Below are positions 24,294-25,628 of a stretch of DNA of 64,000 nucleotides, one piece after another. The number at the start of each line of letters is the position of its first letter. The stretch's first letter is position 1. The DNA comes from a bacterium (GTDB taxonomy: Bacteria; Pseudomonadota; Alphaproteobacteria; Rs-D84). The DNA lies in the NCBI GenBank assembly GCA_014803525.1, contig JAAVBP010000004.1:121369-185368 (forward strand), read 5' to 3'. The notes under the pieces are model-generated. The model was not told where the DNA came from. It worked only from the letters and a program-made list of their open reading frames with translations, and did no database searches. The translations under genes were made by a program, and so were the position numbers.

Positions 24294-25628
24294 TTAATCA
24301 TTTAAAAAATCACGCAACGCATCACCGGACAATGGCATCGTCGCTGCACCGGAATCACGTGCATCCACAATCTGGATCAGACGCGGTGACATAAACACGA
24401 CCAGTTCTGCAAACGGACTGATTAACGTTTCCGGTGTCGTCACAAACGAATGTGTCGGAATACCGATTATGACATAGTTGTCACCAACGCTTGACGGTAT
24501 TGTGAACGACGACAGTTCACCCGCCGACGTACGCAAAACGATTTTTGCATCAATCTTTTGATACCCGCCAAAGTTCCCATACTTACCGGTCGCACCGATA
24601 ATCAGGTCTGTCTCTAACCGTTCTTCCTTGCCACATTGGCCGATATCAAATCGTGATTGCCATCCGTTTGGAACGGCAAACGTACCCTGGGAAATCAAAA
24701 CGACATTCGACTGCTGTGCCAGGAATTCCTGTAACGTTTTTGTATTTATCTCTGGCCCGACAACCAGTGCACGCCCAACCACACCCGGCACAGACATACG
24801 AACATTTTTATCACCAAACGCCGGCAGCAAATTCATCCATATAATCGGATTATCTGTCTTTGGATACACGCGATAAACATCGATATCCCACGCAATCATA
24901 TATTTTTTTGATGATATGTCGGCGATGATGCGGGCAACTTCGCGTTCGGTCTGATAATTTCCTTCAAAGACAACGGTTTTATCCTGCCAGTTAACCAATA
25001 AATTCCGCATATCCGCGCCATGCATCGCATCCAGCAACGCCATGATTATTGTTTCATCGCGCGGCATTTTTATCATCCATTTTGCGCGATGCGTCAGATG
25101 CAATTCGCCGGCGGCATCATCATATGTATAATACATCTTGCCCATCTTGGCCATCAAATCCACCGCATCAGACAACGCACCCGATTGGATTGAACCGGTA
25201 ATTTTCTCTATCCCCTGTTCATCTTCGATGACCGCAATATCGGTTCCGTCCAACAGTTTATCCAAAGACTGTTTCACGGTAAGACTGCGAAATTCATAAT
25301 CCGACACCCGCAGTTCCGGCAGATTATCCCCCATATCCAGACGTACAATTTCAACCTTTTCTTCGGGAACAACAGACACAACCGTTTGGTTATTCCAATC
25401 AACACTGCACCGCTTGGGCAATTCGATTGAAAACCGACGCGCCGTATCAGTGGTCAGCGCCGCCTTTTTCGGAAAAATCGGCACAGAATTAGAATCAATC
25501 ACCAGATTGTCAATAACGGTAACCGTATCATATTGCGGACCCGTATCCTGGACACTGTTACCCGCACATGCCGCGCAAACAATCGCCGCCATGCAACCGA
25601 AAATAACCTTTGTCTGTTTACTAATCAT
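24294..25628 (-). CDS. Lipoprotein with secretin-like C-terminus (candidate T4bP PilN/BfpB-type secretin)
   Basis: Lipobox AAIVCAAC; C-terminal ...NVVLISQGTFAVPNGWQS...AELVVFMSPRLIQIV resembles the secretin C-domain ending (ELLIFITPRIV-like). The alignment is by eye only. Confidence 0.35.
   Translation of the reverse strand: MISKQTKVIFGCMAAIVCAACAGNSVQDTGPQYDTVTVIDNLVIDSNSVPIFPKKAALTTDTARRFSIELPKRCSVDWNNQTVVSVVPEEKVEIVRLDMGDNLPELRVSDYEFRSLTVKQSLDKLLDGTDIAVIEDEQGIEKITGSIQSGALSDAVDLMAKMGKMYYTYDDAAGELHLTHRAKWMIKMPRDETIIMALLDAMHGADMRNLLVNWQDKTVVFEGNYQTEREVARIIADISSKKYMIAWDIDVYRVYPKTDNPIIWMNLLPAFGDKNVRMSVPGVVGRALVVGPEINTKTLQEFLAQQSNVVLISQGTFAVPNGWQSRFDIGQCGKEERLETDLIIGATGKYGNFGGYQKIDAKIVLRTSAGELSSFTIPSSVGDNYVIIGIPTHSFVTTPETLISPFAELVVFMSPRLIQIVDARDSGAATMPLSGDALRDFLND

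Follow-up and report, generated by a model that had tools for sequence, protein, structure and literature searches.

The window that we have analyzed, a stretch of 64,000 nucleotides, comes from Candidatus Enterousia, which belongs to the uncultured order Rs-D84 and has genomes of less than ca. 1 Mb with ca. 900 genes, no flagella and no respiratory chain (PMC12306168). The gene that concerns us here is located at 24294–25628 on the minus strand. It is a real open reading frame (ORF) that starts with ATG and codes for a protein of 444 amino acids (aa). It is separated by only 12 nt from an upstream ORF of 106 aa (25641–25961, minus strand), and by 14 nt from the downstream gene lolCE (23023–24279, minus strand), coding for a LolF-type permease of the lipoprotein sorting machinery (TIGR02212, 418.9 bits over a cutoff of 362.45). 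The stop of lolCE is overlapped by lolD (22311–23030, minus strand), coding for the ATPase, with TIGR02211 as the best NCBIfam hit (241.6 bits, under the 307.75 cutoff). An earlier note, made from the sequence of this DNA alone, pointed out a Cys lipobox and a secretin-like C-terminus in the 444-aa protein and proposed that it is the secretin missing from a type IVb pilus cluster found at 57–62 kb. Secretins form the outer-membrane pores used in type II and type III secretion, by type IV pili, in the uptake of DNA and in the export of filamentous phages. We show below that the protein is almost certainly a lipoprotein of the secretin superfamily, although highly diverged.

The homology is invisible to single-sequence searches. 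The 444-aa protein had no match in Pfam (PF00263 included) or in NCBIfam (among whose models are those for PilN [TIGR02520], GspD, PilQ and MshL) even at E ≤ 10, and neither its sequence nor the profile of its family matched any PDB sequence. Homologs are numerous (1230), and all 120 listed were annotated as hypothetical and without Pfam domain. Taken at face value these results speak against a secretin, but they are a failure of sensitivity and not evidence against homology. The check suggested in the earlier note, i.e., an HMM (hidden Markov model) search with PF00263 and the TcpC/BfpB families, retrieved nothing at E ≤ 10 and would have wrongly discarded the secretin idea. Such a direct test is misleading here because the relationship appears only through intermediate sequences and at the level of the fold.

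The intermediate sequences were provided by an exhaustive profile search covering 1.84 billion representative sequences, which gave 143 hits. They comprised a core of full-length family members (370–470 aa, 22–75% identical to the window protein), and the weak end (E between 1e-12 and 1e-4) was made up of larger proteins of 450–845 aa. All ten of these larger proteins that were tested scored above the gathering threshold of PF00263, several having in addition an STN/N0 domain and two of them a fused TcpQ domain. We could thus compare a diverse alignment of the family (A2) with an alignment of 26 Pfam-verified secretins from the same search (A3). In hhalign the two alignments matched over 331 columns with a probability of 100% (E 1.8e-40). 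The N0 plus N3 part by itself gave 99.8% (E 5.8e-29) and the secretin domain alone 98.5% (E 1.5e-15, 178 columns), while the cross-domain controls remained at 0.1–0.3%. The C-terminal block noticed in the earlier note, AELVVFMSPRLIQIV, was aligned exactly with the conserved C-terminal strand of the verified secretins (ELV..L.PR..RF), indicating that the resemblance is due to homology and not to chance. Furthermore, an HMM built exclusively from the verified secretins recovered the window protein at 3.5e-32, and this was the sole match among the 309 ORFs of at least 60 aa in the window. Other searches added little: a metagenome scan yielded one fragment of 1.5 kb, a search for relatives of P0155 found P0155 itself only, and a scan of genome contigs found only close relatives from Enterousia.

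The predicted fold led to the same conclusion. With an alignment of 39 close homologs (A1) the AlphaFold model was poor (predicted local distance difference test, pLDDT, of 34), but the use of the diverse alignment (22–75% identity) raised the pLDDT to 85.8, with a predicted template modelling (TM) score of 0.76. In this model a signal peptide and Cys21 are followed by a linker (residues 22–96), the periplasmic domains N0 (107–179, STN-like) and N3 (182–240, ring-building), the secretin domain (243–424) and a short terminal helix. When the model was compared with the PDB by Foldseek, all 25 hits at E ≤ 1e-3 were secretins, the best being BfpB (8.5e-11), and no solute-binding fold, the alternative named in the earlier note, was found among the matches. 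The TM-scores were low (0.14–0.25), which is expected when the model of a free monomer is compared with protomers taken from rings. Compared with the A3 secretins, the secretin domain is shortened by ca. 60 residues. However, N3 plus secretin domain add up to 243 aa, against 231 and 244 aa in the modelled chains of f1 pIV and RcpA, so that the size is that of the minimal secretins and the shortening need not mean a broken barrel. The eight strands of the modelled domain would be consistent with four outer and four inner strands.

Several features of the protein can be delimited along the gene (all on the minus strand). The signal peptide and lipobox (residues 1–21, 25566–25628) end in VCAAC21, with an unusual Cys at position −3, and Cys21 is the residue predicted to be acylated. 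This residue is invariant in the 39 sequences of A1, the majority of them with a canonical lipobox (L/V-A/G-A/G-C), so that the lipoprotein assignment of the earlier note held. Among 33 diverse family members a lipobox was present in about two thirds, 19 with the strict pattern and 22 when near-canonical versions, like that of the window protein, are counted. The linker that connects the lipid anchor to N0 (residues 22–96, 25341–25565), defined by the invariant columns of A1 and A2 and by the secondary structure of the model, contains a near-invariant stretch, VPIFPKKAALTTDTARRFSIELPKRC, with Cys74. In the model this linker has two helices and, at 84–96, two beta-strands; judging by its position it may be equivalent to the LG domain of BfpB. 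N0 (25092–25310) and N3 (24909–25085; beta-alpha-beta-beta-alpha) were delimited by the model and by hhalign against the verified secretins, and the compact secretin domain (24357–24902) by hhalign of the domain alone. The latter carries the invariant residues P320, W323, F327, G330 and C332. The block AELVVFMSPRLIQIV corresponds to residues 407–421 (24366–24410), i.e., to the last long beta-strand of the model (408–422), and aligns with the pattern ELV.vL.PR.vRF of the verified secretins. It is located before a tail of 23 residues and not at the very end of the protein, as had been described; the tail includes a predicted short helix (435–443) that is an addition of the Enterousia clade. Two cysteines, one in the linker (C74) and one in the barrel domain (C332), are invariant in the family and absent from the A3 secretins, and a disulfide connecting linker and barrel is possible.

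By its architecture (linker, N0, N3 and secretin domain, with neither N1/N2 nor S domain) the modelled protein corresponds to a liposecretin of the type IVb kind, as the earlier note had supposed. The closest structural neighbor, BfpB, belongs to the bundle-forming type IVb pilus of enteropathogenic Escherichia coli (PDB 9u5s), features a third (N3) barrel and 17-fold symmetry, and has a lipidated LG linker, N0, N3 and a secretin domain, again without N1/N2 or S domain (PMC12531336). The layout is therefore the same, including the lipidated Cys. However, sequence identity is ca. 10–12%, and the secretin domain of BfpB is longer. Besides, the Enterousia gene is found outside the pilus operon, 33 kb from the pil cluster, and not beside a TcpQ/BfpG partner and PilO; no partner of this type was found nearby. 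The PilN family of R64 (TIGR02520; e.g., in Cupriavidus pRK1-3 and Bosea pBSY19_1) also consists of lipoprotein secretins, from the same type of pilus as the cluster in the window, but these are proteins of ca. 560–595 aa. Identification as PilN was set aside given the lack of a TIGR02520 match at E ≤ 10 and of significant hhalign scores against two annotated PilN proteins. The closest sequence relatives recognizable as secretins are those of A3 (e.g., P0208 and P0230), homologous over N0, N3 and the secretin domain. They have a lipobox consensus LxGCA, lengths of 450–845 aa, a full-length secretin domain and, in some of them, a fused TcpQ, and they score below every NCBIfam secretin cutoff. 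Their genes are found in type IV pilus-like clusters (secretin, small protein, T2SSE and T2SSF), one of which adjoins VirB8/CagX; the genes of the window protein's family, in contrast, are not adjoined by T2SSE/T2SSF. The minimal secretins of phage f1 (pIV, 7ofh) and of the Tad system (RcpA, 8odn) have a comparable N3 plus secretin core and were significant in Foldseek, but more weakly than BfpB, and they are not lipoproteins, RcpA using the pilotin TadD and pIV serving phage assembly. HxcQ, a type II secretion secretin of Pseudomonas aeruginosa with N0–N3 domains, has been described as a liposecretin that pilots itself by means of its lipid anchor (Viarre et al., 2009, as cited in PMC3230066). 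Here the likeness is one of concept and not of sequence: a lipidated secretin that would do without pilotin and rely on lipoprotein sorting. Altogether, the window protein is an unannotated variant of secretins with conserved partners of unknown role.

The linkage to the lol genes is stable within Enterousia. At the level of species, the 106-aa ORF was directly upstream of the secretin-like gene in 80 of 80 loci and lolCE directly downstream in 79 of 80. The median identity to the window protein over 80 species was 84% for LolC, 82% for LolD, 78% for the secretin-like protein and 69% for the 106-aa ORF, and dropped to 36–38% in the two genes after lolD. For a minimal genome, the 78% found in the secretin-like protein indicates strong purifying selection. 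The order with lolCE is kept in two deep lineages with LolC only 44–45% identical (in one of them with an overlap of 4 nt), and in three lineages the family gene is followed by lolCE-lolD. The earlier note saw this placement as fitting for a lipidated secretin. The lol genes are genuine and the adjacency is real, but six other lineages (L087, L089, L090, L091, L096 and L099) carry the gene without adjacent lol; the contig of L097 is too short to show what lies downstream. As a lipidated secretin would be a client of the Lol pathway, co-transcription is sensible, and long-lived synteny in reduced genomes explains the adjacency equally well. Promoter-like and terminator-like sites appeared at chance frequency, leaving the ends of the operon undefined.

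Two other observations were made around this operon. The fast-evolving genes that trail lolD (21395–22282 and 20762–21379, both on the minus strand; 36–38% median identity versus 78–85% in their neighbors) code for a membrane-anchored protein of 295 aa and for a secreted protein of 205 aa with two Cys-rich repeats (GCCxGExF...CCK.D..CFPPM). They might be proteins of the cell surface, or secreted ones, that are subject to diversifying pressure. The 295-aa protein, with a leader ending in Gly before a hydrophobic stretch, was considered as a type IVb pilin and rejected, being too long and having no Glu at +5. Divergent from the operon, at 26144–26524 (plus strand), a lipoprotein of 126 aa without Pfam match is conserved as much as LolC (85% median identity, 78 loci), and is a candidate for a small partner of the secretin.

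To look beyond Enterousia we compared ten gene contexts from nine diverged lineages with family members 25–40% identical to the window protein. The strongest genomic association turned out to be neither with pil nor with lol but with a gene that we call Y, located directly upstream of the family gene, often overlapping its start codon, in the nine of nine lineages for which upstream sequence was available (L084:6540-7760, L085:9048-10004, L089:9113-9925, L090:1137-2174, L096:7920-10004, L097:1255-2445 and L099:404-2374 are examples with coordinates). The Y proteins have no signal peptide and no transmembrane segment. They have long linkers, acidic or with Pro/Glu repeats, and a C-terminal domain that is conserved (...QNF...SAIC...E.Y.YYG...). 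In Enterousia Y has shrunk to this last domain, which is the 106-aa ORF of the window; it lacks a signal peptide too and is recognized by the Y profile (E 2.3e-32, alignment A5), with no match in Pfam, NCBIfam or PDB. In several lineages a paralogue, X, precedes Y. The family gene is directly followed in four lineages by Z (L087:2063-2629, L091:1636-2397, L096:11348-12337 and L099:3677-4558), a single-pass membrane protein whose cytoplasmic N-terminus is rich in Pro and Gln and whose periplasmic C-terminal domain, of ca. 95 aa and with two Cys, is conserved. Z is absent from the window. None of X, Y and Z had a credible match in Pfam or PDB and none was present in the canonical type IVb clusters compared. 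In three lineages the X-Y-secretin string is headed by a very highly conserved protein of 332–344 aa with two HTH_3 (helix-turn-helix) domains and a weakly S24/LexA-like C-terminus (L084:4678-5676, L085:7245-8246 and L089:6565-7599; phmmer E 1e-96 to 1e-150 between lineages with a LolC ca. 45% identical to that of the window), without counterpart in the window.

The genes at 57–62 kb, all on the minus strand, form a pilus module of the R64 type (type IVb). It contains PilO2 (60753–62027; PF06864 [PAP_PilO], with tblastn and phmmer matches to the annotated PilO2 of Bosea and Cupriavidus), a PilP-like lipoprotein with lipobox (60101–60763; TIGR03021, 31.3 bits, just below the 34.65 cutoff), a pilus assembly ATPase of the T2SSE family (58453–60117; PF00437, 5e-63) and a platform protein of the T2SSF family (57383–58456; PF00482, 7e-20). 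Convergent with the last pilus gene there is an ORF of 687 aa without Pfam match (54966–57029, plus strand). The canonical clusters of Bosea and Cupriavidus are composed of TcpQ, the PilN secretin, PilO2, PilP-like, ATPase and platform, so that the cluster of the window is complete from PilO2 on and the secretin slot upstream of PilO2 is empty. What is found between lpxC and pilO2, in the position that TcpQ and PilN occupy in the canonical clusters (L094 and L095), is a lipoprotein of 141 aa (62118–62543, minus strand) that could not be aligned with TcpQ and had no detectable similarity to it. The absence of a secretin gene from the cluster, as stated in the earlier note, is thus confirmed, and the 64 kb contain no secretin homolog other than the lipoprotein next to lolCE. 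The window was also scanned for prepilin motifs and surveyed with Pfam, and neither a pilin nor a prepilin peptidase was revealed, so that the genes of the pilus are dispersed in any case. Pili have not been reported from the Rs-D84 lineage (PMC12306168).

That the secretin-like protein is the one missing from this cluster, 33 kb away, has in our opinion an even chance of being right. Its identity as a secretin and the empty slot, both anticipated in the earlier note, stand; its service to the PilO-P-Q-R module is plausible but unproven. PilO2 homologs are abundant in the same clade and share the contig with the secretin-like gene in at least nine assemblies, which fits the proposal, yet would be expected anyway in a single syntenic clade. 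These contigs, paired by their lengths, measure 201727, 479530, 73781, 69436, 148120, 185836, 418380, 886885 and 110823 nt. Co-conservation, which the earlier note had recommended to examine, was not seen farther away: in the nine diverged lineages there were no pil genes within 10 kb of the family gene (several contigs are short), with the exception of a lone T2SSE ATPase two genes away in L096. This weighs against the assignment, and so do several other points. It is based on the lack of an alternative within 64 kb, and another secretin may be present elsewhere in the genome. The conserved neighbors are Y and Z, foreign to the canonical type IVb clusters, and no TcpQ/BfpG-like partner was detected in the searches of the window. 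In hhalign the family profile reached a probability of only 0.8 and 1.5% with the two annotated PilN proteins. Finally, the degrees of conservation differ, ca. 78% for the secretin-like protein versus about 60–79%, mostly ca. 61%, for PilO2 among the homologs listed.

Following the predicted export by Sec and lipidation at Cys21, the mature protein is composed, as homology and fold indicate, of lipid anchor, extended linker, N0, N3 and compact secretin domain. As a client of the LolCDE/LolA pathway encoded directly downstream, and by analogy with other liposecretins, it would pilot itself to the outer membrane by means of its own lipid anchor, and there, like other members of the superfamily, might assemble 12 to 17 protomers into a double-walled gated beta-barrel. 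The gene content suggests that this pore would act as the outer-membrane conduit for the R64-type machine formed by PilO2, PilP, ATPase and platform, whose cluster would have lost the secretin from its canonical position. The N0 domain might dock onto the periplasmic PilP-like lipoprotein, and the small, cytoplasmic-looking Y-domain protein encoded upstream would be a conserved partner.

The main competitor of the pilus assignment is that the secretin is the pore of a different envelope module, not described so far, formed with Y (and its paralogue X) and Z, to which the pilus cluster would be unrelated or only a secondary user. The invariable presence of Y directly upstream across lineages with only 25–40% identity in the secretin, the position of Z in four of them and the fact that pil genes never adjoin the family gene all point in this direction, as does the absence of X, Y and Z from both the canonical type IVb clusters and the Pfam and PDB databases. 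However, in Enterousia X and Z have been lost and Y is reduced to its last domain, and yet the secretin is conserved at 78%, indicating that there it is independent of the intact module. In addition, Y lacks a signal peptide, which makes a direct contact with a periplasmic or outer-membrane protein hard to picture, a T2SSE ATPase is encoded two genes from the secretin in one lineage, and the distant lineages might carry pil genes elsewhere, just as Enterousia does. We consider this explanation possible but on the unlikely side. A more specific version, that host-associated, genome-reduced Alphaproteobacteria keep a three-part envelope module (acidic, repeat-rich Y with paralogue X; Z; and compact secretin) that is independent of type IV pili and became fixed beside the lipoprotein-sorting genes in Rs-D84, is more tentative still, and we rate it as unlikely. 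A role in the Lol pathway itself, for instance as an acceptor in the outer membrane or as a pore through which lipoproteins become surface-exposed, would explain the tight operon with lolCE-lolD, found in nearly all Enterousia species and in the two lineages with divergent LolC, as well as a degree of conservation close to those of LolC and LolD, in a class that to our knowledge lacks LolB. It is nevertheless improbable. Six lineages have the gene without neighboring lol, the fold is that of a complete secretin and not a LolA/LolB-like unclosed half-barrel, the Pfam and NCBIfam Lol models gave no match to the protein, and adjacency is the only link, which reduced genomes can hold for long without functional linkage; a liposecretin that is a client of Lol accounts for co-expression without invoking a new function.

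The remaining explanations are much weaker. A pIV-like export secretin left behind by an integrated filamentous phage or another mobile element would have the same minimal N0-N3-secretin size as f1 pIV, and there are a viral predicted structure that matches at 5.7e-9, the CI/LexA-like double-HTH protein upstream of X-Y in three lineages and a Rep G2P-like gene in the window (10127–10702). But the structural match to BfpB is better than that to pIV, the secretin gene is not adjoined by genes for a Zot/pI ATPase or for coat proteins, and the Rep gene belongs to a separate low-GC island 14 kb away. Above all, in 80 species the gene occupies a fixed chromosomal site, flanked by the core genes ftsQ/ftsA and lolCD, and is conserved much like a core gene, and on this fixed location we have rejected a prophage origin as very improbable. 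As to the C-terminal motif having arisen by chance in a protein of another kind, e.g., a periplasmic solute-binding lipoprotein, the empty Pfam, NCBIfam and PDB searches with the single sequence and the low pLDDT of the first model could be taken in its favor. However, remote homology and fold agree throughout in pointing to secretins, the negative controls were clean, and the A2–A3 profile alignment, the Foldseek matches and the domain-wise hhalign together refute it, leaving a negligible probability.

Some features of the window are worth recording apart from the secretin. The low-GC island just mentioned (ca. 5000–20300; 34–42% GC versus ca. 47%) is probably an integrated mobile element. 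It includes, together with the Rep G2P-like gene, a C5 DNA methylase (7937–9715), an ORF of 1207 aa without Pfam match (12686–16309) and two serine recombinases (16497–17096 and 17485–19203), and in relatives this place is occupied by restriction-modification genes and a recombinase. At 27261–29039 (plus strand) an ORF of 592 aa has FtsA (PF14450) fused in frame to ribulose-phosphate 3-epimerase (PF00834, residues 381–573), an odd pairing of cell division and the pentose-phosphate pathway that is also called as a single gene of 595 aa in the relatives L001 and L002. A type IV secretion system coupling protein of the VirD4/TraG type (41540–43804, plus strand; PF02534, 4.5e-50) is located alone among RNA-modification genes, with no other gene of such a system near it within the window.

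Returning to the secretin, its conservation in a minimal genome has implications that go beyond this locus. The protein is likely to be central to the interaction of the bacterium with its surroundings, by attachment, DNA uptake or secretion. In genome surveys HMM hits decide whether such systems are scored as present or absent. This family comprises ca. 140 clusters at 50% identity, the Enterousia clade by itself contributing more than 1200 sequences, and neither Pfam nor NCBIfam detects it; a survey would therefore record the pilus or secretion systems of these lineages as incomplete. The pairing with Y and Z and the operon with lolCD provide hypotheses about how a liposecretin may be assembled without TcpQ/BfpG or a pilotin, and the finding gives a handle on the envelope biology of an uncultured gut lineage with reduced genomes.

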